Below, piece after piece: positions 6,091 to 61,835 of a stretch of DNA of 64,000 nucleotides. Numbering within the stretch: position 1 is the stretch's first letter; each line of letters opens with the position of its first letter. The notes below the pieces were generated by a model that saw nothing but the letters and a program-made list of their open reading frames with translations, ran no database searches and was not told the origin of the DNA. The position numbers and the translations under genes are program-made. The stretch is from positions 17,817-81,816 of IMG/VR virus record IMGVR_UViG_3300047496_000213, one strand, 5' to 3'. This stretch comes from a virus.

Positions 6091-6515
6091 TCAATCTTCA
6101 TCTGATTCATCGCCAAACCAATCTTCATCTGATTCATCGCCAAACTTTGAATAGTTTGAATCTGTTACATCTACGGTTGATTCATCATCTCGTTGTGCTA
6201 AAATACGAAACTCGCCGAGTCTTTGTATATTTTGATTATGATAAATTGCTGGAATTATTTCATCATTTATATATGTTTCATCGTATTCATAAGCATGATG
6301 TAACATAAGGTAAACTCTTACATTATATCTCTTGCCAGAATATTGTGCTCCGATAAAAGCGGTTGGATATTTCGGATCGATTTCATTAACATAGGCTTGA
6401 TTTATTTGTTCGTGCGTCGCTAAATTAGACTTCCGTGATAATAACCGTCATTGAAACCTTTTGGTAAAGAAACTCTATTTCTCAACGTTTCTACAAGGTT
6501 GATCCACTCGCGCAT
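6091..6515 (-). pseudogene. Frameshifted leader-bearing (MREWINLVE) putative head-cargo gene
   Basis: TATAAATA (6520-6527) then ATG 6515 MREWINLVETLRNRVSLPKGFNDGYYHGSLI-stop. A -1 shift near 6420-6450 continues (LATHEQINQAYV...) into ORF 6091..6306. Confidence 0.7.
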
Positions 6516-6602
6516 CCACTATTTATAATGATAAAAACTCTTGACTAAAAATCTTTCTTGAGATAGCCTTGGATTATCGAAACCATTTTAAAGGAGATAA
6601 AA

Positions 6603-6944
6603 ATGCGCAATAGTTTGAATCGTAAGCCTTCGCCGCTTAGTGTTTGGCGGGCTCAATATAACTATGTCAGTTCCCAGATTCGCAAGACGAAGGATGCGAA
6701 TAAGTCTGGAAGCAAGGCAGTGGCCAATTTGGAATGTTTCATTAATCTGGAAGTTGGTGGTGGTTATACGCCTGCTCAAATTGAACTCTTCTTGCGCTTG
6801 ATTCGCCTTGTGAAGGACAATGCCACCAATCAACGAAATGTTATCTATCTTCGCAAGGAAGCTCGTCGCTTGATGGGAACGCGCGCGTCGGCTCGCGATC
6901 TTGCCCGCGCTATGTGGCAATCAAACCAGCGCGGTTCTATTTAA
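6603..6944 (+). CDS. Hypothetical basic protein (early)
   Basis: AAGGAG SD, TTGACT promoter, downstream terminator. Confidence 0.75.
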   Translation: MRNSLNRKPSPLSVWRAQYNYVSSQIRKTKDANKSGSKAVANLECFINLEVGGGYTPAQIELFLRLIRLVKDNATNQRNVIYLRKEARRLMGTRASARDLARAMWQSNQRGSI

Positions 6945-6946
6945 AT

Positions 6947-6980
6947 TTCTGGGGCCGGTAATACGGCCCCAGAACCTTTT
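6947..6980 (+). terminator. Intrinsic terminator
   Basis: TTCTGGGGCCG-loop-CGGCCCCAGAA followed by a T-run. Confidence 0.75.
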
Positions 6981-7004
6981 ATTATTGAAATCGTTCGTAT
7001 GCAT

Positions 7005-7012
7005 TATAAATA
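7005..7012 (+). promoter_or_regulatory. T4-type late promoter TATAAATA (representative of about 15 TAAATA sites directly before ATGs)
   Basis: Exact TATAAATA 4 nt before ATG 7017. Confidence 0.8.
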
Positions 7013-7016
7013 ATGA

Positions 7017-7580
7017 ATGCGCGAGTGGATTAATCTTTTCGAAGACCCAAGGATCAATCATCCTAAGAGAATTAATACGGCTGAATCCGAAGGTTTTGAC
7101 ACTAGCAAAATTTGGTATCATGGCTCTGGTAAAACTTTCACTAAGTTCAAAGAACCTGACGATAAAGGGATAAATGAGCTTGGTATTGGTGTTTATCTTA
7201 CCAGCGAAAAATATTTAGCTAATACATGGGCTCGCCGAGGCGGAAAAATATACGAATGTTTCATAAAGCCAGGAGATATTTACGATTTCTCTAAACCATT
7301 GACTCCCGCAGTTATAAATCGTCTTCATACGGGTCATTCAAAATTCATGGAAAATCGTTATGGACCCAAATCCGCATATTCTCTTAAATCTTTTATGAAT
7401 ATTTTGAGAAATAAAACCGACCGTCAAACAAACAAAACTTATCTGCATCCTGATGCCAATAAATTATTGAATTTGTCTGGTTATATCGGAGCTATCGATC
7501 ATCGTAGTCAGATACCGGGCCAAATTGTCATTTTTGATCCACGAAATGTTTTCATATTACGTCGGCTTCCCGGTGAATAA
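7017..7580 (+). CDS. ADP-ribosyltransferase-like (PolyVal-type) protein with N-terminal MREWINLFE leader
   Basis: GFDT..WYHGS...F..F, LGIGVYLT...A..WA, G.IYECF and QIVIFDP motif series. Confidence 0.65.
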   Translation: MREWINLFEDPRINHPKRINTAESEGFDTSKIWYHGSGKTFTKFKEPDDKGINELGIGVYLTSEKYLANTWARRGGKIYECFIKPGDIYDFSKPLTPAVINRLHTGHSKFMENRYGPKSAYSLKSFMNILRNKTDRQTNKTYLHPDANKLLNLSGYIGAIDHRSQIPGQIVIFDPRNVFILRRLPGE

Positions 7581-10428: not shown

Positions 10429-10707
10429 ATGAAAAATGAAAATGAAATACAGATGGATTTTTATCAAAAATGTGCTAATCTCTTCGGGCTCGAAAGCGAT
10501 TATAAGCCATTTCCCTACAGAAAAAGAACTCGCTGGAACAATCGTTCCGCTGGTAATGGCCGCTACGAAGGTAGAGGATTGATCAGAATGTTCTCTCCAA
10601 CACTAATTATCGTCACTCTGCATAATCCAAAATTGACCGGACAATTCAAGTCTGGTGACGAAGCCTTATTGGCTATTGAACAAGCATTGGTAATAGCCAA
10701 TGGCTAA
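10429..10707 (+). CDS. Hypothetical protein
   Basis: TTGACA promoter upstream; RTRWNNR..GNGRY.G.GLIR motif. Confidence 0.7.
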   Translation: MKNENEIQMDFYQKCANLFGLESDYKPFPYRKRTRWNNRSAGNGRYEGRGLIRMFSPTLIIVTLHNPKLTGQFKSGDEALLAIEQALVIANG

Positions 10708-11279
10708 GCCCAGCTAACTCCCATATTGTTCTGCTGAGCATAGTCTAATATTTTCATTAAAGTGCTGATGTATCGAGTAATTTGAGTGTCATCAACACCA
10801 AAATCTAGCATTTGCGGCCCTGTTGTTATTCTTGGAATATCACCGCTTCGATCAACTTTACGTTCGCCTTTGAATTCGGTTGGTTCTATTTGATAGGATT
10901 TAGTATCACCATTCATCAACCGGATTAGTCGTCTCTTAATGGTTGGTATTTCATTCGGCGGAATCCATCCCGAGTAGTCATCACACTCCACTCCCAACAA
11001 ACTACATACGACTTGCATATTTCTATTGGAAACATTCATCATCGGAAAATTATATATTGTTTCTGTTTCAATTCCGGTTCCTTGACAATACGGGCAAATA
11101 TTTTTTCTACCGTAGAATTCACCATATTTTGTATCAGAGCACTCTGAACAAGGCTTTTCCATTTTCTCGGAACCATTTGGTGGAAAGTCGATATATTTTT
11201 CCCCATCTCTTATAGATAGCACGGCGGGATGAAAGTCTACACTTTCAGTTATCTGGATCGCATCAATAAAGTTTCTCAT
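10704..11279 (-). CDS. Zn-finger (DnaJ-like CxxC) protein with MRNFIDAIQITE leader
   Basis: CSEC...CPYCQGTG; TAAATA 6 nt before ATG. Confidence 0.7.
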   Translation of the reverse strand: MRNFIDAIQITESVDFHPAVLSIRDGEKYIDFPPNGSEKMEKPCSECSDTKYGEFYGRKNICPYCQGTGIETETIYNFPMMNVSNRNMQVVCSLLGVECDDYSGWIPPNEIPTIKRRLIRLMNGDTKSYQIEPTEFKGERKVDRSGDIPRITTGPQMLDFGVDDTQITRYISTLMKILDYAQQNNMGVSWA

Positions 11280-18748: not shown

Positions 18749-19414
18749 ATGCGCTATGTTGAAATAATTTCCGAAGGCCGCGATGCTCCGTTATTTCGTG
18801 GGTATAAAGATAAAGAATTCGCCATCAAGGCTATTGAAGATAATGAAATAGTTGGATCAACTACTCAAAGATTTTGGCCAGACGGAAAACGTAGAAAAGA
18901 TAATGAACCGGATTATCAGAGTTCTTATTGGATGAAGGGCGCCAGTTTCACCAGAGATTTTAATTATGCGGCTTCTTGGGGTTGTGTCGTATTAGAAATA
19001 GATCAAATAATACTTACACAACGAACAAAAATTATGCCTTTAAATTGGGGTTATAGTATCCCTAGTGGTAATGATCATAAAAGAGAGCGGGAAGAATTCG
19101 CTATAACAAAGAAAACACCAGACACATACAATGATATAGATGCAGATGGGGAAGAAATTCCGACAAAGTTCAACTACAAAAGGTTCTCCAAACCAGAAGG
19201 CGCGATTAAAAATCTTGATAAGATGCTTTTGGGAATATATGTTGATTGGCGAAAAATGGATCATCCAGAGAAAATAAAAATTTTACTCGATCACCCAAAA
19301 TTTAAAGGATTATACAAAATACGCGACAAAACCGCCATTTTACTTCCTAGAAACATAGTAATTACTCCAGAAGATGTTAAGAAATACTGGGATACATGGA
19401 AACTAGGCGATTAG
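18749..19414 (+). CDS. Putative R-S-E ADP-ribosyltransferase with MRYVEIISE leader
   Basis: PLFRG, GASFTRD, EREEF; TATAAATA at 18737-18744. Confidence 0.55.
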   Translation: MRYVEIISEGRDAPLFRGYKDKEFAIKAIEDNEIVGSTTQRFWPDGKRRKDNEPDYQSSYWMKGASFTRDFNYAASWGCVVLEIDQIILTQRTKIMPLNWGYSIPSGNDHKREREEFAITKKTPDTYNDIDADGEEIPTKFNYKRFSKPEGAIKNLDKMLLGIYVDWRKMDHPEKIKILLDHPKFKGLYKIRDKTAILLPRNIVITPEDVKKYWDTWKLGD

Positions 19415-26922: not shown

Positions 26923-27609
26923 ATGCGCGAGTTTATTGATATTGTTGAAAGCCTGAATGAAGACTTTGAAGTCAATCATCCTCTGATTGCTTATCATGCT
27001 ACTCATGAGCCACAAGGCTTAATTCTAAAAAACCGAATGGTCAGAAGTATGGATAGCATGGGAACATGGCTTTGTTCCAGTAAAGAAATGGTAACATATA
27101 CTTTTGGTCCAAATGTCGAAGCCTATGAGCTTCCTCACGGAAGATATTTACATGCTAGACAAAACCAATCCATAGAAGTTCTTCTTACTTGTCTACCTAT
27201 AATCGAAAAAGTATTTGGTAAAGAGGTATCCGATCATTTGATGCAATATCCTTTTACGCCAGAAAACAGAAAATTCTTTTATCAAACAAATCGACGCGCA
27301 AGAGAATACGAAAAAATGGCTAAAAAAAAATCAGGAGTATTGAGTTATAGCCATAAAGAATATTTGAAATATAAATATCCAGATCAGTTTATAAGATGGA
27401 AAAATCTTGAAAAGACCTATCAGTATAATAGCGAAATAGCACGTTCTAAAGAATATTGTTCAGCATTTAGAGCTTTTATTTCTCAACATTATAAAGGAAT
27501 TGCATGGATTGGGAATGTTGGTTGGGATAGTTGGCCAAAAGCAGTCAATATATATTTGGTATTTCATGATGAAGACTTGACACCAATTATTCAAGAACCA
27601 ATAAAATAA
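26923..27609 (+). CDS. ADP-ribosyltransferase-like protein with MREFIDIVE leader
   Basis: AYHAT, MGTWL, YKGI, IYLVF; TAAATA 4 nt before ATG 26923. Confidence 0.5.
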   Translation: MREFIDIVESLNEDFEVNHPLIAYHATHEPQGLILKNRMVRSMDSMGTWLCSSKEMVTYTFGPNVEAYELPHGRYLHARQNQSIEVLLTCLPIIEKVFGKEVSDHLMQYPFTPENRKFFYQTNRRAREYEKMAKKKSGVLSYSHKEYLKYKYPDQFIRWKNLEKTYQYNSEIARSKEYCSAFRAFISQHYKGIAWIGNVGWDSWPKAVNIYLVFHDEDLTPIIQEPIK

Positions 27610-28136
27610 TGCGCCAGTTTATGAAAATCGTTGAAAGTAATGTAAATCTTGAAACAGTCGCTCGAATGTTAAACAAAGATTTAGAAGGCGGCGGTTATGA
27701 TGTGGTAATGCAATACATTCGAATGGATAATGATCGTGATCCATATGATGATACTGAAATACCAGACGAAGACGCGTTAGTTGCAGCGTGGTGTGAAGAA
27801 AAAGTCGCACAAGAATATCGTAATTTGCAATGGATGTTTCAGCAAAATGGAGGCAAGTTGAAGGTTTGGCGAGAGATTACTGCGCCGGAAGATTGGAAAA
27901 TTGATTCGAGACATCCTGGAATATTTTGGTCTTGGGACAAAGCAGCGGCAGAAGCCCATTGGGGTGATTTTGGTAATAATCATGTAAGATGGCTCATTGA
28001 AGCTATCGTTGCGGTTAATGATGTAGATTGGCCACATACAATTGTTCAGAATGCTAATCCAGATTATTCAGATGAATGTGAAATTCGATTAATTCCTAAT
28101 AGACCAATTAATATTATTTCATATTGGCAAGACTAA
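27609..28136 (+). CDS. Putative R-S-E ADP-ribosyltransferase with MRQFMKIVE leader
   Basis: KVWREI, GIFWSWD, DECEIRL (ExE). Confidence 0.55.
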   Translation: MRQFMKIVESNVNLETVARMLNKDLEGGGYDVVMQYIRMDNDRDPYDDTEIPDEDALVAAWCEEKVAQEYRNLQWMFQQNGGKLKVWREITAPEDWKIDSRHPGIFWSWDKAAAEAHWGDFGNNHVRWLIEAIVAVNDVDWPHTIVQNANPDYSDECEIRLIPNRPINIISYWQD

Positions 28137-42515: not shown

Positions 42516-44351
42516 TTAAGATGATGTATTAGGGCTTGATGATTTATTTTCAATACGATCAATTATATGTTTACAGTATTTTGTAAAATAGCTTTTTTCA
42601 AAATTTTTCATAAATTCTATTAGTTTTGGTTTTAGTATTAAAATAGATTCTAATATCTTATCATTTGGAAAATCTCTAAAATAAGTGTCTATATAATTAT
42701 AAAATTCTACGTCATCTATACTATTTATACACGCTTCAAATGATTCATTTGGATACAAAGAACATAAGTAACTTGAAAGAAAATGACCGAATTGAATACG
42801 GAATTCCCTATCATTAACCTGAAACATCAACCATTTCGTTAGTTTTACTGCTCGTTCTGGTGTCATAATTTCTATTTGGACATGCCTGCCAAGAGACAAA
42901 TATATGTTGACAAAATAATGAATATTGATATCGAATAGATAGACGGCAGCTTTCGGCATTTGCCTAATAAAGTAGTAAGAAAACACATCATATCTAGCTG
43001 GATTTAATCTTATTCCTTCAATAACTTCATCTTCTGTAAATTGAATATGTCGAATAGTATAACTATTAGGATAATTTTCTGAAGTACCGATGGCGTTTAT
43101 AATTATTTTTCTAATTTCTGGAGTTGAACTAAAATCTAAATAAGGGGTAGCCTCAACTAAAGATGATATTTGCTCTGTTTTTGCACTCTTAAATAATTGA
43201 GTTAGTTCTTCCTCATCTAATGGTATGCAAGATATAAAATTCCGATCATAATTTAAAATAATTGAAATATAGTTTTTCTTAAAATAATCTTTAACATAAT
43301 CTGGCATTTTCTCCCAATTCCAATTGTATACATCAGGAAACTTTTCCATTAATGCGAGTATTTCTTCTATTGTTAATTTTCCAGCATTAACAAATTTCAT
43401 AAAAAAGTTAGGATTTTTCTCAACAAACGTAAAACTATTTGATGGTTTTGGGTTTATATTACGAATAGTCTCTAAAGGTTTAATACCTTTTATACTGAAA
43501 AATACTGCTTGAGTAGGCTCGTTAACATGAATTATGCCTTCATCGGCTCTATCTACGGCTCCCTCATATCCTAACATTCGAAACAATTTTGCCCATTGAA
43601 CGATATGATTGGTTTTCAATCCTTCAGACAAAATAGATTTTTTTGAAGTAAATCCTTCATAATACTCGTCTTCTTCGTCATTTGTATTTTCATAAGGATC
43701 GAAATGATTATCTACTGTGTTTTCTTGCGTATTGTTAATTATATTTTCCATGAAGAAAGCGGCGACGCGCGTAATATTCCAAATCATTCCTCCATATGTT
43801 TGAACTAATGCGCGTTTAGAAATCTTTATAGGATCAAAAACCGGAATATTGTCAGCATATTTCAAGCCCATATTTTTCAGTATATCAAAAATTTTAGCTA
43901 TATCAGAAGTCATATCACTTCGAGAATAATTTTCTAAATCCAACATTCTTCCGGTTTCTTGAAAGACTTGAAGATACGGCTCGTCGCCAGAAAAAGGTAC
44001 TTTACCATTATGCTCTAAAACATATTCAACTGGATAAGAATATATACCCAATGGGGTATTATCCCATGATGATTTAGGATTAATACCTAATTTCGCTCCT
44101 TTAGTATTTTTATCTTTAAAGCGAGATGGATCAATATATGTGTTCCCATATTGATGATTTTTCTGAAGATGTGTGTATTGGGCGTCTTCATGAGATTGTT
44201 TTCCTACATCTGTAGTATATGATACATATACATCTAAACGATTTTTATATTTTTGTAATTCTTCAAGGGCTGAACGTTTATAGTTAACGGAATTATTTCG
44301 TCTTAACTCCGTTAAGAATTTAGAACTTTCGAATAATTCAGACAAAAACAT
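42516..44351 (-). CDS. Large late protein with MFLSELFE leader and weak ART-like N-terminal domain
   Basis: TAAATA 4 nt before ATG; PLGIYSYP, GYEGAVD, EPTQAVFF; helical C-terminal half. Confidence 0.6.
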   Translation of the reverse strand: MFLSELFESSKFLTELRRNNSVNYKRSALEELQKYKNRLDVYVSYTTDVGKQSHEDAQYTHLQKNHQYGNTYIDPSRFKDKNTKGAKLGINPKSSWDNTPLGIYSYPVEYVLEHNGKVPFSGDEPYLQVFQETGRMLDLENYSRSDMTSDIAKIFDILKNMGLKYADNIPVFDPIKISKRALVQTYGGMIWNITRVAAFFMENIINNTQENTVDNHFDPYENTNDEEDEYYEGFTSKKSILSEGLKTNHIVQWAKLFRMLGYEGAVDRADEGIIHVNEPTQAVFFSIKGIKPLETIRNINPKPSNSFTFVEKNPNFFMKFVNAGKLTIEEILALMEKFPDVYNWNWEKMPDYVKDYFKKNYISIILNYDRNFISCIPLDEEELTQLFKSAKTEQISSLVEATPYLDFSSTPEIRKIIINAIGTSENYPNSYTIRHIQFTEDEVIEGIRLNPARYDVFSYYFIRQMPKAAVYLFDINIHYFVNIYLSLGRHVQIEIMTPERAVKLTKWLMFQVNDREFRIQFGHFLSSYLCSLYPNESFEACINSIDDVEFYNYIDTYFRDFPNDKILESILILKPKLIEFMKNFEKSYFTKYCKHIIDRIENKSSSPNTSS

Positions 44352-46777: not shown

Positions 46778-47470
46778 ATGTACGAGTATATTAGAATAAA
46801 AAACAAAAATTATCATAAGAAAAAAATGGAAGAATGTAATGAATTAGGCATTCAGTTATTGATGATAAACGAAGACGAATGGAATGAACGACCAAATATA
46901 ATAAAAAATAAAATTCTAAATCTATGTGGATTATCTGAAAAAGGTAGTGGTGCTAGAAAACTTATAGTAAAACAAATTCCAAATTCAGAAGCACGACAAT
47001 TTCTTGAAATATTTCATATTCAAGGAAAACCAACATGTTCTCTATCAATAGGAGCATTTGAATGTGATAAATTAGTATCCGTTATGACGTTTTTTCCGCA
47101 ACGGGGAACAAATATGATGGAATTAAATCGTTTTGCTACTAATGGTAAAATATTTGCAGGAATATTTAGTAAAATGTTAAAATATTCTCGTCAGTTTATT
47201 TCAAAGCAAATAGTAACATTTGCTGATTTAAGATATAGTAATGGTAATCTATATGAAAAAACTGGATTTAAAAAAATAACAATTATACGAGCAGATTATC
47301 GTTACAGTAAAAGAATGAAAACATATCATAAAAGAAGTTTTACTAAAAATAGAATAGCTAAAAAATTTGGAATTGATATGTCTAACAGAACTGAAAAAGA
47401 AACTATGGCATCTCTTGGATACTATCGAATATATGATTGTGGTAAAATAAAATATATTTTAGATAACTAA
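46778..47470 (+). pseudogene. C-terminal fragment of the same endonuclease family (Mom/GNAT-like domain only)
   Basis: Begins mid-domain (NYHKKKM...LMINEDEW); contains ELNRFA, VTFADLRYS.GNLY, RIYDCG. Confidence 0.6.
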
Positions 47471-47542: not shown

Positions 47543-48757
47543 TTAAATAAAGCTCAACGTTGTGGTATCAATACTTACAAGACCGAGGAAATCCGCTGCG
47601 TTTCCGAGAGAGCTGGAAGTGTTGCTCAATTCGATGTAGCCGTATCTAGTAAGGAACGACACAACTGGCTCGAAGGTGTTAGGATCGATAACAATTCCGG
47701 AAGAAGTCAGAGGAACGTAAGGGCAGTAGAAGGCTGCTGCATCCATTTCGTTGCCTTTGTATCCAATGAGAACTGGCGTACCATCAGAAGCATACTGGTC
47801 AACATAAACGCGCATAGCGTTGTTCAGAGTTCCAACAAACTTGGTGTTAGTTGGAGCTTCGAAAACACCTTCGGTGGTGCGAGCAAATGCCGAAGTCGTA
47901 GCTGATTGCAAAATCGTAAGAGCAGTTGGGGAAACAACGACCCAGTTACCAGCACCACGACGGGTACGGGAAGCAATCAGGTTTGCTTGACGGTTGATCA
48001 AGATAGCAAGAGCAGCGTGAACGTCGCCAACGAAGGTTGGTGTACCGGTTACGGTGTCTTGTTTGAAAATCGAAGTAGCTGCGCCTGGAAGAGCACGCAG
48101 GGAGACCAAGATTTCCTGATCGATTTCTGCGGTGATTTCTTGAGCCAGAGCGGCCATGATTTCAGCTTCAATGTCAATACCTTGTTGAGCTTGAGCATCT
48201 TGGGCCGCTTCGAAAGTCCAGCGAGCCGACAGCTTACGCGTCTTGGCTTCTACGACTTCCTTCAGGATTTGAATGCTCAAACGGTTACCAGGAAGACCTT
48301 CTAACGAAGGCGTTGCGGCACCCTTTGGAGTAGTAACATTTTGGTTACCAGAGTAGAAACGAGCAATATCGAAAGGAGACAATGCTTCAGTACCAGCAGA
48401 AACACCACCACCAGCGGTTGGAATAGTATCCGCATAACGGACACGCAGGGTGTGGATTTGTGCAACTGGCCCAGTCATTGGCTGCACGCCGATGATTTCG
48501 TTTGCGATAACCGTTGGCATGACACGACGAATTACTGGCAGGATGACCTTGTTAAGGGTAGCAACGCTGGCAGCATTGGTGGCACCGGAAGTAGCCGATT
48601 CCATCAATCGCAGTTCACGACGAGTATTTTCAAGAACAGTTTCCATGACCTTTTGTTTGGTCGAGTTTGGTGAACCGTCTGCATTCTTCTTTAGGTCTGC
48701 GCCTTCACACAGAGCCTTCTTGGTGGCTTGCCACTGAGATTCAAAAAGTTTATTCAT
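47543..48757 (-). CDS. Major capsid protein (T4 gp23-like)
   Basis: IIGVQPMTGP..QI..LR, AKTRKL.A.WT.E.AQD, EI..EIDQE, RRGAGN, YCPYVPL, DP.TFEP...F.TRYG. Confidence 0.95.
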   Translation of the reverse strand: MNKLFESQWQATKKALCEGADLKKNADGSPNSTKQKVMETVLENTRRELRLMESATSGATNAASVATLNKVILPVIRRVMPTVIANEIIGVQPMTGPVAQIHTLRVRYADTIPTAGGGVSAGTEALSPFDIARFYSGNQNVTTPKGAATPSLEGLPGNRLSIQILKEVVEAKTRKLSARWTFEAAQDAQAQQGIDIEAEIMAALAQEITAEIDQEILVSLRALPGAATSIFKQDTVTGTPTFVGDVHAALAILINRQANLIASRTRRGAGNWVVVSPTALTILQSATTSAFARTTEGVFEAPTNTKFVGTLNNAMRVYVDQYASDGTPVLIGYKGNEMDAAAFYCPYVPLTSSGIVIDPNTFEPVVSFLTRYGYIELSNTSSSLGNAADFLGLVSIDTTTLSFI

Positions 48758-48776: not shown

Positions 48777-50021
48777 TTATTTTATGCCTGCAAGTCTAAC
48801 GACTTGGGCGAGTTCTAAATTATGTTCTACTTCTGATTCTGCTTGCGCAGTTTCAAAAAGTCTGTTCACACGGTCACCCGTATGAGTAACGGTGTTATGA
48901 TCTTCTTTTTCTATTAACTTCTTACCTTGTGGGGCAGATGGTTTACGGTTGCCTTCATTGACGACAACTGGAAGAAGCTTATTGAATGCTGCGCGGAGAT
49001 TTGCAGTTTTAGTGGTCTCCAGCATTCCTTCCATTACTTGTCGTTTATCACCACGAAGGTTGGAAAGAAGTTCATTCATTATTTGCGAACGAGCAGCACG
49101 TTCTTCTGCAAGAACTGCCTTGCGGCGAGCAATTTCAGATTTTTGTTCTACTTCATTCAGCTTGGACTTTACTTCGGTCAGTTCAGAAGACTTGCTTTCC
49201 AGCATCTTTTGTAACTTACGAACTTCAGTACCTTCCGCGAGGTAGCTGGTCATATATTCGGCAGCTACCGCTTCGAAAATTCTACGACCAAACATGTTTT
49301 CGCGATTACGCTCAAGGTCTTCATGAAGTTGTGACATCTCACGCTTCAAGGATTCATTTACCATTCCCTCGACTTTAGCAGCCGATGCTTTGACAAACTT
49401 ACTCTGCATTTCCTTAAGTTTTTTTCGACCTTCAGTTACCAGTTTGATACGGGTTTCAACTAAAGCACGCTGATCTTGTCCAAATTCCTTGAGTTCTTTG
49501 CCAACCTGACGGACGACAAATTCATCAATTTTCTTCAGACGATCTTTTTGTTGTGTGGCAAGATTCTCTTTAAGAGCTTTCAATTCATTTTTAATTTGAA
49601 CTTTAGCTTCAGCGAGTTTCTTTTTTTCTGCACGAAGGGCAGATGCTTCGGTGACCAATTGCTCATTCGCAAAGCGGCGAGTAAGTGAAAGGTGTTCACG
49701 AAGCTTTGTCTTGTAGCTCAGGCGCGATTCCTTAGCGGCAGAACGAAATGCATCGCGTGCCTCTGAAAGTTTAGCGAATTCAGCAGCCTTGGTTTCTTCT
49801 TGTTTAGCAACAACATCCGTAAGCATACGGTCCATAGCTTCAACAAGATTAGATTTATCATTCTCGTAACGACGAGCAAATTCTTCACGCAAAGTCATTT
49901 CTGCTTGTTCGCGCGCTTCTAATACTTTCTTATCAAATGCTTCTTGAAGTGCTTGAGTAATCTCTGTTGGGAGACCAGCCGCACCAAGAATATTCTCCAA
50001 TGTTTTATCCATAGGATTCAT
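48777..50021 (-). CDS. Prohead core scaffolding protein (gp22-like)
   Basis: Long coiled coil directly upstream of the capsid gene; GRRIFEA motif; AAGGAG SD. Confidence 0.8.
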   Translation of the reverse strand: MNPMDKTLENILGAAGLPTEITQALQEAFDKKVLEAREQAEMTLREEFARRYENDKSNLVEAMDRMLTDVVAKQEETKAAEFAKLSEARDAFRSAAKESRLSYKTKLREHLSLTRRFANEQLVTEASALRAEKKKLAEAKVQIKNELKALKENLATQQKDRLKKIDEFVVRQVGKELKEFGQDQRALVETRIKLVTEGRKKLKEMQSKFVKASAAKVEGMVNESLKREMSQLHEDLERNRENMFGRRIFEAVAAEYMTSYLAEGTEVRKLQKMLESKSSELTEVKSKLNEVEQKSEIARRKAVLAEERAARSQIMNELLSNLRGDKRQVMEGMLETTKTANLRAAFNKLLPVVVNEGNRKPSAPQGKKLIEKEDHNTVTHTGDRVNRLFETAQAESEVEHNLELAQVVRLAGIK

Positions 50022-50885: not shown

Positions 50886-51439
50886 ATTGTAGCATTGATG
50901 GTTGCGGAAATGTGGTAGTTAATATAGCTAATCAGTTATGCGGAAAGCACTACTCACAAATATATAGAAATGGAAAAATAAACACGCGAGGAAAAAAACA
51001 AGATAACCCGTTGTATGGTGCATGGAGTCGTGTTAAGACCGACTCATGTGAAAGATGGAGATATTTTTGGAATTTTGTGGATGATATTACTATACCACAA
51101 GATTATGAGAACTATATATTTAAGAAAAAAAACAAATCTTTGCCGTTTAGTCTGGAAAATTGGAGTTGGAAAAAAAGAGATTTTACGAAACTTGTAAGAA
51201 CTAAAAGAAAATATAATTACGATACAATGTATGGAGAACAAAACGGTTGCTGTGCTATTTGTCAAAAATATTTTAATGCTTTGATTTTAGATCACTGTCA
51301 TACGTCAGGTAATATTAGAAAATTACTCTGTAACGGTTGTAATACTTGTTTAGGAAAATTAAAAGAGGATGTTGAAATAATAAAATCTATGATTTCTTAT
51401 CTACAGATATGTAACGTAACAGATAAAGAGATTGGTTAG
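50882..51439 (+). CDS. Endonuclease VII-like homing endonuclease (paralogue)
   Basis: QNGCCAIC...LDHCH.SG.IR.LLC.GCN. Confidence 0.85.
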   Translation: MNCSIDGCGNVVVNIANQLCGKHYSQIYRNGKINTRGKKQDNPLYGAWSRVKTDSCERWRYFWNFVDDITIPQDYENYIFKKKNKSLPFSLENWSWKKRDFTKLVRTKRKYNYDTMYGEQNGCCAICQKYFNALILDHCHTSGNIRKLLCNGCNTCLGKLKEDVEIIKSMISYLQICNVTDKEIG

Positions 51440-51498
51440 TTGAAATGTTCAAAAATTAGTTATGACTTTAAATTCTATGGAATTAGATTAAAAAATCT

Positions 51499-53076
51499 CT
51501 AGTCCCTAACGAAATTAGAAAATATTTTACTGAACAATCCAGCGTAAGTTTTGCCATCAGTGCAAAATCTTATCAATTCAAGCCTTTGAGTATTTCTTTG
51601 CTGATTGAAAAGCATGACTCCCACTAACTCTTTATTATTGAACGCACCATACGCGTATTTTACGGTGGCCGGTTTTCCCTGAATGTGATAAATCTCACAA
51701 AAATCTTGTCCTTCACGATTGTTTATTTTGCGTATAGAAAGTTTTCGTGCACCAACCCCTCTTTCAGACCTTCCGCACACATTAAGTATTTTTCGTTTTA
51801 TACTGTCCGCGCGATTATTCCATTCGTCCTCGTTGATCATCAGCAATCGTACACCTGCTTCATTGCACATCTTCCACTTATTGTAGTGGTAATCGTTCTC
51901 TTTCTTCTTGTCAGAATGCCAATAGAGTCCGTTGAATTCTATTGCTAGATTGTGCTCTGGAAGATAGAAATCTAATTCCAATGGTTTTATTAATGTTCTG
52001 TCGCGTTCTATAAATTGTATATTATTTTCAGTTAAGAATACCGCAATTTCACGCTCGTAAGAGCTTGATTTATATTCAAAATTTATGTCCAAATTATTAA
52101 TATAATTACCGATAGTAGAGGTGCTGACCTGCAATTCCTTAGCAGCGGTAGACATTGATCGATGTTCCATAAAAATTTTGAATTTTTGCTTGTCAGATAA
52201 TATTTCTCTAGCCAGAGGGGATAGCTGTATTTGCGAAATATTAGAAACACCATATCTTACGATACATGTCTGTTTTCCAGATTCAGATATCTTCTCTTTA
52301 ATATTTGAATTCATACTTGGAGTGTGAAATCCATATCGTTCTATATTTGTTTTTTTAATTTCTTCTCTAATTTCTGATAATGACAACGTGTAATTTGTCC
52401 CATATTTTTCATTATTAGTAGATATTCTTTTATTTTTTACTTGTTCTGATGATCCAACATAATCCGTTCCATATTTTTCATTATTGGTTTTTTGTAGTTT
52501 ACTAATTATTTCAGGGCATCGCAATGGTATCTTATTTCCATAGAGTTTAATCATAGTTTCATCTCGTTTCCTGAATCCTTTTTTATAATCTTCTGATGAA
52601 GGTCGATTTATACTTAAAGGATGAGAGATATATCCTGTATTTTTTGTGTATGTATCTTGTTTTTTTTGTAGTAATACTTTCCATTCTGCTTCTGATAAAT
52701 TATCGAAATAATTCTTACGATGCTTTACATTATCAGAAATACTGCATTGACAATTTTTCGTGCAGTAGGAACTATATCCATCTGTAATTCCACTAAATTT
52801 TTTGAAATTGCCGTTATCACAAGAAATTGGTTTGTTTTTAGTATAAAGCTGGTAAATTTTTTCGTTAATTGACAAGGATGTGTTATCAATAGAATTTATG
52901 AAATCTTTAAATTCTTTATATCGTGTTAAATATACAGCAACATAGAATAGTTTTTCATCAAGAGAGAATTCTCTCTTAGTATTCTTTCGCTTATATTTTT
53001 CAAACAAGAAATCAATATGTTTTTGATGATCAATTAATTTAATTTGGCTCAGCAATATCTTCTTGACAATCTCCAT
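51499..53076 (-). CDS. Homing-endonuclease-like protein (EKYG repeats plus PD-(D/E)xK), C-terminally truncated
   Basis: ELDFY...IEFNGLYWH...INEDEW; stops after YAGLFSK, lacking the ADxR/GNLY/RIYDCG end seen in its paralogues. Confidence 0.75.
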   Translation of the reverse strand: MEIVKKILLSQIKLIDHQKHIDFLFEKYKRKNTKREFSLDEKLFYVAVYLTRYKEFKDFINSIDNTSLSINEKIYQLYTKNKPISCDNGNFKKFSGITDGYSSYCTKNCQCSISDNVKHRKNYFDNLSEAEWKVLLQKKQDTYTKNTGYISHPLSINRPSSEDYKKGFRKRDETMIKLYGNKIPLRCPEIISKLQKTNNEKYGTDYVGSSEQVKNKRISTNNEKYGTNYTLSLSEIREEIKKTNIERYGFHTPSMNSNIKEKISESGKQTCIVRYGVSNISQIQLSPLAREILSDKQKFKIFMEHRSMSTAAKELQVSTSTIGNYINNLDINFEYKSSSYEREIAVFLTENNIQFIERDRTLIKPLELDFYLPEHNLAIEFNGLYWHSDKKKENDYHYNKWKMCNEAGVRLLMINEDEWNNRADSIKRKILNVCGRSERGVGARKLSIRKINNREGQDFCEIYHIQGKPATVKYAYGAFNNKELVGVMLFNQQRNTQRLELIRFCTDGKTYAGLFSKIFSNFVRD

Positions 53077-53108: not shown

Positions 53109-53744
53109 TCAATATTTTAGGTTATTAATCCAATTTAATAATTCTTCTTTGAGATACTTTTGGGCTTTGGGATCGTGAATAACCGATCTTGCCAAGTCTT
53201 CAATGACATGTCCACGACGACTGTTAAGTGATTCGTAAGTAGGTTTAGGATAAGCATTGGGGGCTGACGGCCTAGCCACAATATCCACTGTAATGATTTC
53301 AAAGGAATCTACAGTTCCATCATCATTTACGTTTCCCGATCCTCGTGAAGATACACCAAGCTTTACTTCATTTTCTATAAAAGTTCTTGCAATTTCACCT
53401 AATGGTGTCGGAAGAATCTGTAGTTTTCCCATACCGGAATTACCATCCATCCACATCTTAGTAATTTTGTGGGCGACTCTATCCAAATTTATAGTCAACT
53501 CTTCAGGATGATCTAGTTCTCCAAGGACACTTTCGCCTTTTCTAATAATTTCATTGATATTTTCTACTGCATTAGTTATTTCTTTTACTGGGTAGATTCT
53601 TTGATTAAGATTTTTAATACCACCCTGAATAAAAATTCCAGAAAGAAATAGCTTTTTCTTTTTTAAATCACCTTCACCTTCAGTGATGCGTTCAATCTGT
53701 ATACCAGCTTCATCAAAGGTTAATCTCTCGTTTAGAATAATCAT
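53109..53744 (-). CDS. Prohead maturation protease (T4 gp21-like)
   Basis: GIFIQ...N.NQRIYP, LGELDHP, GVSSRGSG, TVDIVA.PSAP.AY. Confidence 0.93.
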   Translation of the reverse strand: MIILNERLTFDEAGIQIERITEGEGDLKKKKLFLSGIFIQGGIKNLNQRIYPVKEITNAVENINEIIRKGESVLGELDHPEELTINLDRVAHKITKMWMDGNSGMGKLQILPTPLGEIARTFIENEVKLGVSSRGSGNVNDDGTVDSFEIITVDIVARPSAPNAYPKPTYESLNSRRGHVIEDLARSVIHDPKAQKYLKEELLNWINNLKY

Positions 53745-53808: not shown

Positions 53809-54195
53809 ATGAGAAAGTGGATTAATCTTGTTGAAAGCCTTAAAGAAGCCAAATAAAATGGAGGCGTATATTACAATCTATCGCGATCAGAATTCTTAAA
53901 AATGATATATAAAGAAGATATTCGTGGCGTAGCTTATAGAAATGAAGTATTTGTCGCCCCAGCTTACGAATTTAATCATTGGTAAATACGCCCAAAAAGT
54001 GGAATTCCACAACTCTATGGTGAAGATGGACATGGCGGCCCGTATGGGTTTGATTTTTATGCTACGACCAAAGAACGAAAATCAGAAGCAGACGATGATT
54101 GGATATATGGCACTCCAATAGAAATAGGAGATATTATTATTTGGGTCAGTGGTGATGATACTCCAAATAAAGAGTTTGATTATCTTACCAAATAG
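53809..54195 (+). pseudogene. Leader-bearing (MRKWINLVE) gene with two in-frame ochre stops
   Basis: TAAATA 4 nt before ATG; the frame continues through TAA at 53854 and 53983 to TAG at 54193-54195. Confidence 0.7.
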
Positions 54196-54988: not shown

Positions 54989-56008
54989 TTACTTAACCTT
55001 GCCACCATTCTTACCGTCGATAACCGAACCGGTTACTTTTTCACCGGCACGTGTTCCTGGCTTGTTTAGTTCAGCTTTTGCGCTTCCTTCTTTCGAAATC
55101 TTCTCAAGCTTTGGTCCGTTATTATTACGAGCCTTGATTTTTACTGGCGTTACAGTTGGAGCCGTTTCGCGGGCAAAACCCTTGTGAATGGATTGCTTAG
55201 ACATATTTGGACTGCCGCCTTGACGAGCAGTGATATTCTTTTGAAGACCGATAGACTTGCCATTGTGAGTTGGTTTATCGGTAGAACCCGTTCCAACTCC
55301 TGTACCATCACTCATTGTGACTTTTACTTTTTCAAGTTCGTCAATGATAGATTCGGAAATATCGTCAAATTCATCATCTTCTGATCCGAAATTGTCGTCT
55401 TCTTCTGAATCTTCCATGTCATCGGCAACATCGTCTGCCATTTCCATGTCATCGTCTGCCATTTCCATGTCATCGTCTGCCATTTCCATGTCATCGTCTG
55501 CCATTTCCATGTCATCGTCTGCCATTTCGTCATCACCAAGGCCGCCATCGAGTTCAGCCATTTTGGCTTCAAATTCAGCCATAAGTTCTTCCATACGATC
55601 TACAGCTTGTTCCATACGATCCGCTGGATCGCCAGCATCATCTTCAAGATCATCATCTTCAAAACCTTCGTCATCACCGAGACCATCAAGTTCGTCTTCT
55701 TCACCAGCTTCCATGTCTTCGTCGCCAGCTTCCATGTCACCGTCTTCGAATTCACTTTCAGCATCGGCAAATTCATCGCCCGCATCAGCATCATCGTCTT
55801 CAAGATCAGATAAATCTTCTTCGGTGAAGTAAGATTCCGTAGTGATTTCATCACTCCAGTTTTCGTCCAGAACGTAATCTTCTCCAGAACGATTGGATTC
55901 ATGAATCTGACGAGCACGTTCCACAATGAACTTGTGGAAAAGCTCTTCGGCCGCAGTTGTGTTCTCATTGAGAAGTTCGATAAAAGCACGCTCTAAAAGT
56001 GAACGCAT
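54989..56008 (-). CDS. Highly acidic prohead core/internal protein
   Basis: Lies between portal and protease; D/E-rich; several (I/L)xE sites; GGGAG SD. Confidence 0.75.
   Translation of the reverse strand: MRSLLERAFIELLNENTTAAEELFHKFIVERARQIHESNRSGEDYVLDENWSDEITTESYFTEEDLSDLEDDDADAGDEFADAESEFEDGDMEAGDEDMEAGEEDELDGLGDDEGFEDDDLEDDAGDPADRMEQAVDRMEELMAEFEAKMAELDGGLGDDEMADDDMEMADDDMEMADDDMEMADDDMEMADDVADDMEDSEEDDNFGSEDDEFDDISESIIDELEKVKVTMSDGTGVGTGSTDKPTHNGKSIGLQKNITARQGGSPNMSKQSIHKGFARETAPTVTPVKIKARNNNGPKLEKISKEGSAKAELNKPGTRAGEKVTGSVIDGKNGGKVK
55413..55533 (-). repeat. 21-bp tandem coding repeat (DDDMEMA)
   Basis: About 5 copies of GCAGACGATGACATGGAAATG. Confidence 0.9.
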
Positions 56009-56405: not shown

Positions 56406-57038
56406 TCACGCATGGATATATTTATACTGACCTGCAAACTGACACCAAATTTCAACATTGACCAAGTGCTTATGCAATTCTTTTACGTTTCTTACTGTGA
56501 TCGCCCAATCATGATTACCTAATGCTATGGCGGCATCTCTGGCTAATGCTTGGGCTTCATTGAAAACCGGTAATTCAGAATGAGCCAAGGCATATTTCTG
56601 CGAGGCTTCTTTCCAACCGTTCACATAATCAGAAAAAATAATAGATTTTCCGTCTTTGATTGCACAATTAAAATTATTGCGAATGTTTACTTCCACCCTT
56701 TCTGTAAAAGATTTTCCCTGCCAATCTGGCTCATTCATGCAACCCAAAATACGATTGGTTTTTTCCGTCATGGTATTAAATCCACATCTACTATTGATTG
56801 GATTGGCGGCCATTCTGTTGGTTAAATCGCCAACTTGTTCACACATCCAAGTATACTGCCCTAATGCATAGAATAATTCAGGATTCGTCCTCATAGAATT
56901 ACCCATCATTTCCGGCTTTACTCTTTGAAGTTTGGCTAATTTTTCAAAATCATCTATTGCTTTTTTCTGAATTTCGCCTTCCATACTAAAAATATTTAGT
57001 TGAATAGCGTTTTCTATTAGAGTAATGTATTGGCGCAT
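56406..57038 (-). CDS. Hypothetical protein with MRQYITLIE leader
   Basis: TAAATA 4 nt before ATG. Confidence 0.75.
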   Translation of the reverse strand: MRQYITLIENAIQLNIFSMEGEIQKKAIDDFEKLAKLQRVKPEMMGNSMRTNPELFYALGQYTWMCEQVGDLTNRMAANPINSRCGFNTMTEKTNRILGCMNEPDWQGKSFTERVEVNIRNNFNCAIKDGKSIIFSDYVNGWKEASQKYALAHSELPVFNEAQALARDAAIALGNHDWAITVRNVKELHKHLVNVEIWCQFAGQYKYIHA

Positions 57039-57211: not shown

Positions 57212-57649
57212 TTAACGACGTAAGTCGGATATCATTAAAGGTCCGCCGTGCGAAGTCGCATGTAAGACCTTGAAACCCCATGACTCATACCATTTAACTA
57301 GATAAAAATCGTTACGTTGGCTTTCTTCTGTGTCAGCAATCAAAAGAATCGCCTCGGCGCCGTAAGCATCAGATTCGCTTATAAAAGTCTCCAAAAGATG
57401 AGCACCGAAACCTTGTCCCTGATACTCTTCCTCGACATTTATATTGTTGAGGAATGCTATCCGACTATAAGTTTCTTTTAATTGTTCAACCAGTTCTGGT
57501 TCATTAATATGATGACGATACGAAAGCCAGTTGTCTAACTGTTCTTCTCCGCTATCAACTACGTATCCTTCAACTGATCCTTCATTAATAGAATAATCAA
57601 TCTCTCGGAAATAATTTACTGATTCGACTAATTTAATCCATTGACGCAT
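57212..57649 (-). CDS. GNAT acetyltransferase with MRQWIKLVE leader
   Basis: INVEEEYQGQGFG acetyl-CoA motif; LVKWYESWGF. Confidence 0.8.
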   Translation of the reverse strand: MRQWIKLVESVNYFREIDYSINEGSVEGYVVDSGEEQLDNWLSYRHHINEPELVEQLKETYSRIAFLNNINVEEEYQGQGFGAHLLETFISESDAYGAEAILLIADTEESQRNDFYLVKWYESWGFKVLHATSHGGPLMISDLRR

Positions 57650-59294: not shown

Positions 59295-59454
59295 TTACTG
59301 ACACTGATATCGATAGGGCCGCCGAAGTCATTTATAATGATTTCTTTGGTGCTCGTGTAGGTGAACTCTGGGAAACCCTACCCGACGACGCAATCATAAA
59401 GATACAGTGTCGTGCAACAGCTAAAGCCGCTGTAAATGCGGCATTGAAGTCAAC

Positions 59455-59868
59455 ATGAATAATATAATTGATATTTCAAAAATTCGAAAAGAAAAAGAAG
59501 ATAATGATCTTCAAAAAGAACTTAACGATATTTGGGATGCGGCGGTAAATAGCGGGATAATTTATACGAATACAGATGCAGATAATCTCTTCCAGGCGCG
59601 CTTAAGAGATAAAGTAGTTAGTATTTTAGAACAAAAAAATTTAATAAATGTCGAAGAAGCCTGTCAGGAAACAGTAATGAGAAAGTTATCAACTATATTG
59701 TATGATGAAGATGCTATTAAACCAGACTTAAACAAATTAGCAGAACTGATTGCTGAAGAATTCAATTTCAGTATAGGATATCTCATTTCTATTATGGCAA
59801 ATCGTAGATTAGATATAGAGAAACCGTGGATGAGTTTTATGATAAAACTACATTTAAAAACCGCCTAA
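59455..59868 (+). CDS. Hypothetical protein
   Basis: MNNIIDISK start. Confidence 0.6.
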   Translation: MNNIIDISKIRKEKEDNDLQKELNDIWDAAVNSGIIYTNTDADNLFQARLRDKVVSILEQKNLINVEEACQETVMRKLSTILYDEDAIKPDLNKLAELIAEEFNFSIGYLISIMANRRLDIEKPWMSFMIKLHLKTA

Positions 59869-60096
59869 ACCGCCGCCACCCGGTTCTTCTATTGGGCTGT
59901 ACATAATTCCCAAAAGGTCTTGACGCTTCAACGCTTCGGACTTTTTCAAAGATCGCATCAATTTTAATCTATTGAGAATAGCTAAAGTTAGAACTGGTTT
60001 GCGTGTATCGTCAAAGTGGCGAGCATTATACGAATCTTGAGACGGATTGTAATAACCTGTCGCTACTTGTGCTTGATCAAATTCTAAAAGTTTCAT
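59854..60096 (-). CDS. Small late protein of the head cluster
   Basis: TATAAATA 5 nt before ATG; DTRKP.LTL..LNRL...MY motif. Confidence 0.7.
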   Translation of the reverse strand: MKLLEFDQAQVATGYYNPSQDSYNARHFDDTRKPVLTLAILNRLKLMRSLKKSEALKRQDLLGIMYSPIEEPGGGGLGGF

Positions 60097-60262
60097 AATA
60101 TTATTTATACAAAAATCGCTTGACTACTTTAAGAACTATATTATAATGAACAAATAATCAGATGCATAGGAGATAAAATATGAAGTTCCTTAGAAATCCT
60201 TCTGTTATCGACTTTTCGAGTATTGTCAAGGTCGTCAGCAAGCCAAGCTAGGTCGTGATGAT

Positions 60263-60532
60263 ATGGAAATTAAAACCGTTGGGTATAGTTATGATGACAT
60301 GGACAATCGGACTGGTCGTATCTACGTTAACGGCGTAGAAATCGGCCATGTTTCACAGGAAGAAGCCACTTGGGCTGGTGTCGATGCTCTAAAGCGTGTG
60401 GCCAATGGTCTAGCGAAGCTCGCGGGTATCCAACTGGAAAATGTTGATGCTCCCTTTGAAGAGGAAGACGATGAAGAATGGCTTCTTCAATGGCGCTTCT
60501 TCAATGGCAATCCGGACAGCAATAGCGTGTGA
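60263..60532 (+). CDS. Hypothetical protein
   Basis: ORF downstream of a TTGACT..TATAAT promoter. Confidence 0.6.
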   Translation: MEIKTVGYSYDDMDNRTGRIYVNGVEIGHVSQEEATWAGVDALKRVANGLAKLAGIQLENVDAPFEEEDDEEWLLQWRFFNGNPDSNSV

Positions 60533-60540
60533 TACGACTG

Positions 60541-61005
60541 TTAAAACAAGGATGAGACTATATTCATTTTTATTCTCATTTCATTCATAGTTGATAATTT
60601 ATTTTTATAATCTTGATATTTTTTGAAACTATAATGAACATGCCCTTGTTTATTCAAAATTCGCAGTTCATCTAATAATTCTTTTTCTGTATGAGGAATA
60701 ATCAATGGGGTATTGAACTCTTTTATTACATCTTCTGGATTTACTTTTCCTCTAATATCATAAATATTTCCATTAGCCTCAACAGCAAAATGACTCCAAA
60801 GCCATTGAGTTGATTTATCGCGACTATATCTATTATGTGGTCCTGGTTCTTCGCAAAATGCTACAATTTCACAATTAATATTTCGTTTTTTAAGAAAGCG
60901 ATATAAAGACAACGCAAATGTTCCACAAAGACCACAAGTCGCATCCTCTACATCATCTCTACTATAAGAACAATTCTTAATCATTTCATCTATGCTATCG
61001 ATCAT
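60541..61005 (-). CDS. Putative papain/transglutaminase-like Cys-His-Asp protein
   Basis: GLCGTFA, WSHFAV, IYDIRG. Confidence 0.5.
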   Translation of the reverse strand: MIDSIDEMIKNCSYSRDDVEDATCGLCGTFALSLYRFLKKRNINCEIVAFCEEPGPHNRYSRDKSTQWLWSHFAVEANGNIYDIRGKVNPEDVIKEFNTPLIIPHTEKELLDELRILNKQGHVHYSFKKYQDYKNKLSTMNEMRIKMNIVSSLF

Positions 61006-61835
61006 ACTTCAACCAATACATAACCATTAAGATTATCAAACAATAACTTTATACGAGCGTTTAATTCTTTTTCTAATTGATCAGAAATAATAGAATTCTT
61101 AGGTAATTCAAGTATTACTTTGCCCTTTATCAAGTATTGAGCTATAAGTTCTGGAAAAACTTCAAACTCACCACTTACCCGATTGTTTCTAGCCGATGCA
61201 GAAGTCATTGGAATATCAACTGCATAAAACCCGCCTCCCCATTCCGTTTCATATTCATCGTCAGCAGTATCCGCTAAATAATCATCTTTTTCATCATCTA
61301 AAAATTCTGATCCACCTTGTTTTACGCAAGTTTTGTTTATATCTGATAGCATTTTTCCGAAGTTTGAAGATTCCCATTTACCAGCTATACCATCTTGCAG
61401 AGAATGTCCGATTTTATGAGCCAAAATCCAAGGTGTAAGAGCTATTTTGGCGTTTGTATTACCAGTAATATCAATAAAAGGCGAAAGATTTGAAAGTAAT
61501 AATACCTTAATCTTTCCGGGTTGACCAACATATTCCTGACCCATAAAAGTAAATTGGCGATGAAACCCGGCTCTTAATCTTATAGCCTCGTCATCAACTT
61601 CATCATTTATAGCTTCATCGTCTGCATCGGTAACATCAGAATTTATAATAAAAACTTCGAAAACATGCGGCGTTCTTGAAAAAGCTTTGAACATTCTTGG
61701 ACGAAAATCTGGTTTCTGCATTTTTATGCTATCGAACGACCCGAAACTGTTAGTTGTATTTGGATCGCCAACCACTGTTAGATCAGCCATAGGAGCTTCA
61801 TTGAGCCCTTCAACAATCTTGATAAATTCGCGCAT
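61002..61835 (-). CDS. Zincin-like protein (HKxxH) with MREFIKIVE leader
   Basis: WILAHKIGH and downstream EVFPELIAQY; TAAATA 6 nt before ATG. Confidence 0.6.
   Translation of the reverse strand: MREFIKIVEGLNEAPMADLTVVGDPNTTNSFGSFDSIKMQKPDFRPRMFKAFSRTPHVFEVFIINSDVTDADDEAINDEVDDEAIRLRAGFHRQFTFMGQEYVGQPGKIKVLLLSNLSPFIDITGNTNAKIALTPWILAHKIGHSLQDGIAGKWESSNFGKMLSDINKTCVKQGGSEFLDDEKDDYLADTADDEYETEWGGGFYAVDIPMTSASARNNRVSGEFEVFPELIAQYLIKGKVILELPKNSIISDQLEKELNARIKLLFDNLNGYVLVEV

Follow-up and report, generated by a model that had tools for sequence, protein, structure and literature searches.

A capsid-targeting-like leader on unrelated late genes of a T4-related jumbo-phage clade, probably a packaging and cleavage tag

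In T-even phages, the internal proteins (IPs) form a diverse set with nothing in common but a capsid targeting sequence (CTS), and this arrangement has been regarded as a possible evolutionary device for loading varied proteins (PMC3012670, PMC9026906). Mutagenesis of the CTS of T4 IPIII has linked residues 4 and 7 to targeting and residues 8 and 10 to processing (PMC9026906). In the T4 record, IPII and IPIII start with MKTYQEFIAE and IPI with MKTFKEF...ITE, each followed at the cut by A, while Alt starts with MELITELFDE. Here we describe a leader of nine residues, M-R-x-W/F/Y-I-x-L/I-V-E, that heads about a dozen otherwise unrelated late genes in a stretch of 64,000 nucleotides (nt) of DNA from an uncultured phage, corresponding to bases 17817-81816 of the 81.8-kb IMG/VR contig IMGVR_UViG_3300047496_000213 and referred to below as the window. 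Set against the mapped positions of the T4 CTS, the leader has an aromatic residue at 4, hydrophobic residues at 7 and 8, and Glu at 9, a correspondence of sequence alone. We propose that it is probably a CTS-type packaging and cleavage tag of a giant-phage clade, used on a far larger scale than in T4, on enzyme cargo and with the promoter abutting the start codon.

To assess how unusual the shared start is, we searched the whole contig in six frames with the regular expression M[RK]x[WFYV][IMVL]x[ILMA][IVFL][EQ]. All nine matches lie inside the window, all stand 0-20 codons past a stop codon and are hence starts of open reading frames (ORFs), and all fit the strict form M-R-x-[WFY]-[IM]-x-[LI]-[IVF]-E; block shuffles gave a mean of 0.07 matches and a maximum of 1. 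A motif search of this kind had been proposed in an earlier note on this DNA, made from the sequence and its ORFs. Two divergent leaders, MRYVEIISE at 18749 and MFLSELFE at 44351 (genes are named here by the coordinate at which they start), bring the total in the window to eleven, and six additional loose variants occur in the 17.8 kb upstream of it. The note had counted eleven leader genes, and all eleven N-termini are present at the positions and on the strands reported there, but two of them, 6515 and 53809, are broken remnants. Its remaining observations on N-termini also stand: the leader ends in [LI]-x-E, like the CTS of T4 IPII and IPIII, and the capsid protein (MNKLFE), an acidic core protein (MRSLLE) and the protease (MIILNE) begin as it described. 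No two of the nine intact cargo proteins are similar by BLASTP at E<1e-3, which bears out the diversity claimed for a cargo that comprises an ADP-ribosyltransferase (ART), a GNAT and unrecognised proteins. The codons of the leader vary synonymously (CGC/AGA/CGT; ATC/ATT; CTT/TTA/CTA; GTA/GTT/GTC), and the leader is therefore conserved as protein, not as DNA.

In 10 of the 11 leader genes, a TAAATA box precedes the ATG by 4-6 nt, the exception being the coupled gene 27609, exactly as the earlier note had claimed when it assigned every other leader gene a box of its own. In all, 18 genes have TAAATA at this distance (4 nt in 11 genes, 5 nt in five and 6 nt in two) and no Shine-Dalgarno sequence, with other box distances occurring as scattered singletons; they include 2801, 4681, 5518, 6079, 7017, 11279, 18749, 26923, 44351, 50172, 57038, 57649, 60096 and 61835. 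The arrangement TAAATA-N4-6-ATG itself was counted 27 times, compared with 8.7 in shuffles. The strict leader is found on six of the 18 TAAATA-proximal genes (and on two remnants), on none of 41 Shine-Dalgarno genes and on one of 58 others (Fisher p=4e-5), this last being the translationally coupled 27609. An equal frequency of the motif on early genes, which the earlier note had named as an argument against its proposal, is thus not what is seen among the 41 Shine-Dalgarno genes. In T4, a late promoter consists of a TATA box of 8 bp that lies upstream of the transcription start by about one helical turn (PMC2988020); by that geometry, a TAAATA box 4-6 nt from the ATG would place the start of the mRNA at the AUG or within a base or two of it, and the mRNAs of the TAAATA-proximal genes should be leaderless, a consequence that the earlier note had overlooked. 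Distant homologues of gp55, the T4 late sigma factor, are present in four complete relatives and in Phosso, and our literature searches found no description of a leaderless late mRNA class in T4-related phages. As a separate observation, GTCAAG, the reverse complement of a TTGAC -35 box, stands just upstream of several late TAAATA boxes (those of 6515, 11279 and 44351, and of the genes at contig positions 6720 and 11048 upstream of the window), and this suggests that late promoters overlap the -35 box of divergent early promoters.

The source phage can be placed among the T4-related jumbo phages, on the Rak2/PA5oct/Phosso branch, because of the similarity of its major capsid protein (MCP), its S77 protease, its T4-type portal and its scaffold-like and acidic core-like proteins. 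The MCP shares 78% identity with that of Phosso, a Sinorhizobium phage of 469 kb, and about 66% with those of PA5oct, GAP32 and CBB; among IMG/VR genomes, it shares 87-89% identity with three that are complete or near-complete and 561-608 kb long (G004, G005 and G002) and 70% with one of 500 kb (G001). Database comparison found no near-identical phage record, and the only sequencing runs that contain the stretch are two DNA runs from moss metagenomes, perhaps those of the source sample itself. CheckV puts the completeness of the contig at 14%, from which a genome of about 580 kb follows. An S77 protease was found in all four near-complete relatives.

Across IMG/VR, a scan for TAAATA-N4-6-ATG followed by a degenerate leader gave 102 loci, almost all heading real ORFs of 80-520 amino acids (aa), although a few of these matches are false positives. 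RusA and thymidylate synthase were rejected as cargo, as their natural N-termini (L051; E. coli-type ThyA) probably fit the degenerate pattern by chance. With the leader pattern alone, 2-13 copies were counted per genome in five large genomes (415-608 kb, of which four are 97-100% complete), against control counts of 0-1. The 89 complete leader-bearing ORFs fall into 39 clusters, and the cargo of relatives that Pfam recognises includes Fe/Mn superoxide dismutase (SOD), ART-PolyVal (three clusters), GNAT (two), DUF7178, DUF6934 and a nucleoside 2-deoxyribosyltransferase-like protein. Two of the families are widespread with the leader: the SOD, 184 aa long, occurs in L095 and 25 other IMG/VR loci, and an iron-sulfur family of 142 aa, annotated as high-potential iron-sulfur protein (HiPIP) in other phage records, occurs in L083, L021 and eight other loci. 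Over 46 non-redundant leaders, conservation extends to positions that the search pattern left free: 44 have an aromatic residue (F/W/Y) at position 4, even though the pattern permitted Cys and Leu there, 22 have Asn at position 6, 45 have Leu or Ile at position 7, L/I at 7 goes together with E at 9 in 45, and position 10 is small or polar. A second [LIVM]xE follows within residues 10-17 in nine of the 46. The leader is a trait of the clade.

The leader is also an add-on to the cargo domain, because alignments of the leader-bearing SOD with cellular SODs and with the SOD of Vibrio phage 2.275.O begin only at residue 17-19, and because residues 1-11 are unstructured in the AlphaFold2 model of the 7017 protein (mean pLDDT, the predicted local confidence, 75.7; below 50 for residues 1-11; fold from about residue 16). 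In the SOD of the Vibrio jumbo phage 2.275.O, merely seven residues precede the domain. Leaders are swapped or stacked between relatives, for example between genes of the window and of G004. The G004 orthologue of 18749 begins MRDLMNIVEGITPENVMIME instead of MRYVEIISE, and its homologue of the 611-aa protein at 44351 begins MRYRDIIKE, as opposed to MFLSELFE in the window. Orthologues of the 7017 ART differ at their N-termini (MRLKELAP, MLCSELFE, MRYFELSE, MNIVELFE) and always keep L-x-E at residues 6-9.

The steps that a packaging and cleavage tag would entail can be set out as follows. Leader genes would be transcribed late from the T4-type TAAATA box into an essentially leaderless mRNA for which no ribosome-binding site is required. 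The amphipathic leader would dock the new protein on the core scaffold of the prohead under assembly, the S77 protease of the gp21 family would cut after the leader Glu and release the mature enzyme within the head, and the enzyme would exit with the DNA at the next infection. Packaging, docking, cleavage, ejection, leaderless transcription and any effector role, such as one against host defences, are what we infer for this phage. Promoter, start codon and tag together would amount to about 45 bp, and any ORF placed behind them would become late-expressed head cargo, which would explain both the diversity and the rapid turnover of a cargo that ranges from ARTs, a GNAT, a Zn-finger protein and unrecognised proteins in the window to SOD, HiPIP and nucleoside deoxyribosyltransferase in relatives. 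We advance more tentatively the wider idea that a 400-600-kb soil and freshwater jumbo-phage clade has made the T4 CTS into a general 45-bp cassette of leaderless promoter, start and tag, and so possesses a large and fast-changing injected proteome, with many ARTs and acetyltransferases and, more surprisingly, redox enzymes (Fe/Mn SOD and HiPIP) that act in the first seconds of infection.

Evidence on virions comes from PA5oct, for which 93 of 461 proteins have been linked to the virion (PMC7318152). A tblastn search with all leader-bearing ORFs found only two cargo homologues in this phage, gp223 and gp135. The SOD-like gp223 starts MNDSIKKYISIAE, with the identical aromatic+3/+5 spacing, and gp135 starts MHLFELFD, while its IMG/VR homologue has MRQWINLVE in front of QQLNELF. 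Both proteins are annotated 'ESI-MS/MS' in the PA5oct record, that is, they were detected in purified virions. Two detected homologues out of two, with a probability of about 0.04 by chance, are suggestive, if thin. A relaxed protein regular expression retrieved only gp223 and one unrelated ORF from PA5oct.

The same data can be read in another way, with the leader as a docking or assembly propeptide for structural or attached proteins of the head, neck or tail and not as a signal of ejected cargo. The annotation of gp135 as 'structural protein' fits this, as mass spectrometry cannot localise gp135, and the MCP, the protease and core proteins also begin with xLxE. The cargo, however, consists of soluble enzyme folds (ART, GNAT, SOD, HiPIP) and not of fibre or baseplate folds, the motif fits the CTS of the T4 internal proteins and not any tail-assembly signal, and the ART resembles a component of a pre-ejectosome. 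We therefore regard such a propeptide as unlikely, though it is the alternative that survives best. Rather less probable is a leader that targets a different partner or place in the cell (a chaperone, a protease adaptor, a membrane or the replication compartment), or that serves as an N-terminal degron, with no packaging involved. A short amphipathic helix could bind many partners, the SOD-like gene of PA5oct adjoins ClpS- and ClpX-like genes, and packaging in this phage is so far something that we infer; against these points, the leader goes with late promoters and with the neighbourhood of head genes, with insertions inside the head module, it terminates in the motif of the S77 protease, and both PA5oct homologues are virion-detected.

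If the conserved first codons served expression on leaderless mRNAs, by helping ribosomes to bind or transcripts to initiate, the peptide itself would be incidental. The 18 TAAATA-proximal genes, in which the start of the ORF would also be the start of the mRNA, lend some weight to this explanation, but codons vary synonymously while the amino acids stay, 12 of the 18 lack a strict leader, and the leader is also found on the coupled 27609, on an upstream gene with a Shine-Dalgarno sequence (MRAREIIVE) and on a PA5oct gene behind a normal 5' UTR, so that we consider it very improbable. Least credible of all is that the shared start is the passive scar of a mobile segment of late promoter and first codons, encoding a functionless peptide, for although short stretches of the cassettes are alike as DNA (78-82% over 38-51 nt), leader genes have been inserted by comparison with the close relative G004 and remnant leader ORFs exist, the peptide is conserved between genomes whose MCPs are just 70% identical, and to keep it over 39 cargo families in which the codons differ, purifying selection must act on the amino acids.

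Several observations weigh against a packaging and cleavage tag. Internal [LI]xE sites are not clearly depleted in the cargo, with an observed/expected ratio of 0.90-0.94 compared with 1.10 in other proteins, a difference too small to count either way, and the GNAT holds seven such sites. It is hard to see what some enzymes, SOD and HiPIP among them, would do once injected. Among the RNA runs searched for the stretch, none contains the sequence. The support from PA5oct consists of two proteins with variant leaders and is blind to head versus tail and to cleaved versus uncleaved. Leaders of the strict pattern number zero in Phosso, the closest isolate, and zero in PA5oct (searched with the DNA pattern); leader recognition must therefore have diverged.

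Searches of Pfam and PHROG with the nine intact cargo proteins recognised just the ART and the GNAT. The ART is encoded at 7017..7580 (+) behind the leader MREWINLFE, with TATAAATA 4 nt ahead of its ATG, and matches ART-PolyVal (PF18760, 1.2e-7; 33 bits against a cut-off of 31.2), which four homologues also carry. When its model was searched with Foldseek, the best PDB match was a chain of the solved pre-ejectosome of cyanophage A4, and PARP catalytic domains came next; profile and model together identify an ART-PolyVal protein with an ART fold. The GNAT acetyltransferase (57212..57649, -; leader MRQWIKLVE) matches PF13508 at 8e-7 and PF00583 at 2e-5, and its gene has been inserted into the head module by comparison with G004, as has the gene at 56406..57038 (-), which joins the leader MRQYITLIE to a cargo of 210 aa.

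The remaining leader genes carry cargo that these searches left unrecognised. At 10704..11279 (-), the leader variant MRNFIDAIQITE precedes a protein with two CxxC motifs (CSEC, CPYCQGTG), for which Pfam and PHROG searches gave no match. The divergent leader MRYVEIISE at 18749..19414 (+) heads a cargo with an LFRGY motif, and MREFIDIVESLNE, a leader with two tandem xxE sites, heads a cargo with an AYHAT motif at 26923..27609 (+). The next gene, 27609..28136 (+; leader MRQFMKIVE), lacks its own TAAATA box; its start overlaps with the stop of 26923..27609, and its translation is coupled to that gene. The Alt-type leader MFLSELFE begins the 611-aa protein at 42516..44351 (-), the N-terminal part of which is ART-PolyVal-like, a lead only, from an Atlas look-alike. 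At 61002..61835 (-), the leader MREFIKIVEGLNE is followed by a cargo of 277 aa. The earlier note had called this protein zincin-like, but the HExxH motif is absent, and we do not retain an identity as a metallopeptidase, for which the Atlas matches are leads only. In G004, the 277-aa domain lies inside a protein of about 960 aa that starts MRDLMDLLNE and continues with an ART-like YHWTT motif. Several cargo proteins probably have an ART fold despite the absence of pairwise similarity. With T4 Alt as query, BLASTP against every contig protein and every leader ORF gave nothing below E=2.

The two remnants are short. The one at 6420..6515 (-), MREWINLVE..., has 31 codons with an ART-like YYHGS motif, after which the frame is broken by stops and a frame change, and an ORF of 71 aa at 6091-6306 lies in another frame. 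The one at 53809..53856 (+), MRKWINLVESLKEAK, has 15 codons and then a stop, and is divergent from the protease gene. The frame runs on, coding-looking, over 53809-54135 (+) and is interrupted by two TAA stops; a recent pseudogene or an assembly error is the likeliest explanation for this remnant.

The head module surrounds several of these genes. It includes the prohead maturation protease of the T4 gp21 family (53109..53744, -), which the earlier note had recognised as gp21-like and which matches Peptidase_S77 at 9.4e-26 and PHROG 207 (phrog_207) at 1e-57, and a T4-type portal protein of the gp20 family (62541..63974, -; Portal_T4 5.5e-40). The MCP (47543..48757, -) belongs to the Gp23 family by Pfam. 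The Pfam Gp23 profile begins at MCP residue 65, and the sequence ...RLME, which ends at residue 53 and is followed by SATSG, resembles a main maturation site; the propeptide of the MCP is probably about 53 aa long, as in T4 gp23, rather than MNKLFE alone. Next to it lies a coiled-coil scaffold-like core protein (48777..50021, -) with 19 [LI]xE motifs, or 4.6 per 100 aa compared with a contig mean of 1.3, whose 62% identical orthologue adjoins the MCP in G004. A very acidic, repeat-containing prohead core-like protein, starting MRSLLE...LLNE, is encoded at 54989..56008 (-).

The head module, made up of the MCP, scaffold, protease, acidic protein, small protein and portal genes, measures 5.8 kb in G004, compared with 16.4 kb for its counterpart in the window. 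The extra DNA in the window consists of two homing-endonuclease blocks, the 53809 remnant, and the leader genes 57038, 57649 and 61835 plus their neighbours. The homing-endonuclease genes invade the module at 44657-47470 and 50172-53076 and are all missing from the compact module of G004; they comprise paralogues of 719 aa and 525 aa (phrog_3339/559), a fragment-like paralogue of 230 aa and two Endonuclease_7/HNH-like genes.

Elsewhere in the window, a protein of 686 aa is encoded at 29522-31582 (+), of which just residues 427-686 match the G004 clamp-loader homologue and the PHROG clamp-loader profile. Its first 426 residues or so have PHROG matches of terminase, helicase and primase type, which points to a phage-specific N-terminal fusion or an intein-like insertion. 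An NAD synthetase lies at 40567-42435 by PHROG match, and the regions 35558-36115 (+) and 36269-42435 (+) have G004 homologues.

If the leader is a packaging and cleavage tag, the proteins that a giant phage injects could be read directly from its genome, and the ARTs, GNATs and redox enzymes listed here would be candidate first-strike effectors for tests against host defences. The principle of the T4 CTS, with its three small proteins, would widen to take in dozens of enzyme families in an uncultured clade, and a short packaging tag would be at hand for putting foreign proteins into jumbo-phage capsids. The design in which the promoter abuts the ATG, in turn, leads to the prediction that late mRNAs of a leaderless class exist in T4-related phages.

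Among described systems, the giant phages related to phiKZ (201phi2-1, phiKZ, SPN3US; PMC5694885, PMC10052503) share with this one a gp21-related protease, which in those phages trims the propeptides of many head-internal proteins after Glu, and they eject a large protein cargo into the host, akin to the role that we propose for the cargo here. Their propeptides, however, are long and heterogeneous and have another cleavage motif, whereas the leader is one short shared tag, and their lineage differs in its virion RNA polymerase and its phage nucleus. The polyvalent proteins and the cyanophage A4 pre-ejectosome (PDB 9k3a) also have the ART-PolyVal domain (PF18760) in proteins delivered with phage DNA, and the leader-bearing multidomain protein of about 960 aa in G004 joins an ART-like start to a 61835-type domain, as polyvalent proteins do. 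Instead of one giant polypeptide, most of the domains here are single-domain proteins, each separately tagged.

T4 Alt, a head-packaged and ejected ART with a short propeptide cleaved by gp21, is a further parallel, several of the cargo proteins here being ART-like. Its start, MELITELFDE, resembles MFLSELFE of 44351, MHIIDLFE upstream of the window and MHLFELFD of PA5oct gp135; the first two of these probably represent a second, Alt-like flavour of leader, M-x-x-x-E/D-L-F-E. Alt itself has 682 aa, whereas the ARTs here are of ART-PolyVal or H-Y-E type, about 190 aa long and without detectable similarity to Alt.

The closest relative of the leader remains the T4 CTS. In both cases an N-terminal peptide of about ten residues, with a basic residue at 2, an aromatic residue at 4 and a final [LI]-x-E, is found on unrelated proteins, in a system with a gp21-family protease, what appears to be late expression, and diverse cargo with fast turnover. 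The leader is one residue shorter, with the consensus MRxWIxLVE versus MKTYQEFIAE, and packaging and cleavage, known for the cargo of the T4 CTS, are predicted for the cargo here. Against the three IPs of T4 stand about a dozen cargo genes within the 64 kb and, over the clade as a whole, no fewer than 39 cargo families. The T4 IPs are small and basic, whereas the cargo of the clade consists of enzymes of 80-611 aa, and the window cargo of 145-611 aa, the ART and the GNAT included, falls outside a strict definition of IPI-III as small, basic, DNA-associated proteins of about 8-20 kDa; these proteins resemble CTS cargo in their behaviour and are no homologues of the IPs. The T4 IP genes occupy a single locus and, like alt, have a spacer and a Shine-Dalgarno sequence, whereas leader genes are scattered, inserted in the head module, and have a promoter that abuts the ATG. 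Our literature searches found no paper describing the leader, and Iyer et al. 2021 on jumbo phages mentions none. The earlier note had suggested that the arrangement might be undescribed at this scale; unrelated proteins sharing a CTS had already been described for T-even phages. Thus, what the window and its relatives add to this known principle is an extension in scale, in clade and in the type of cargo.

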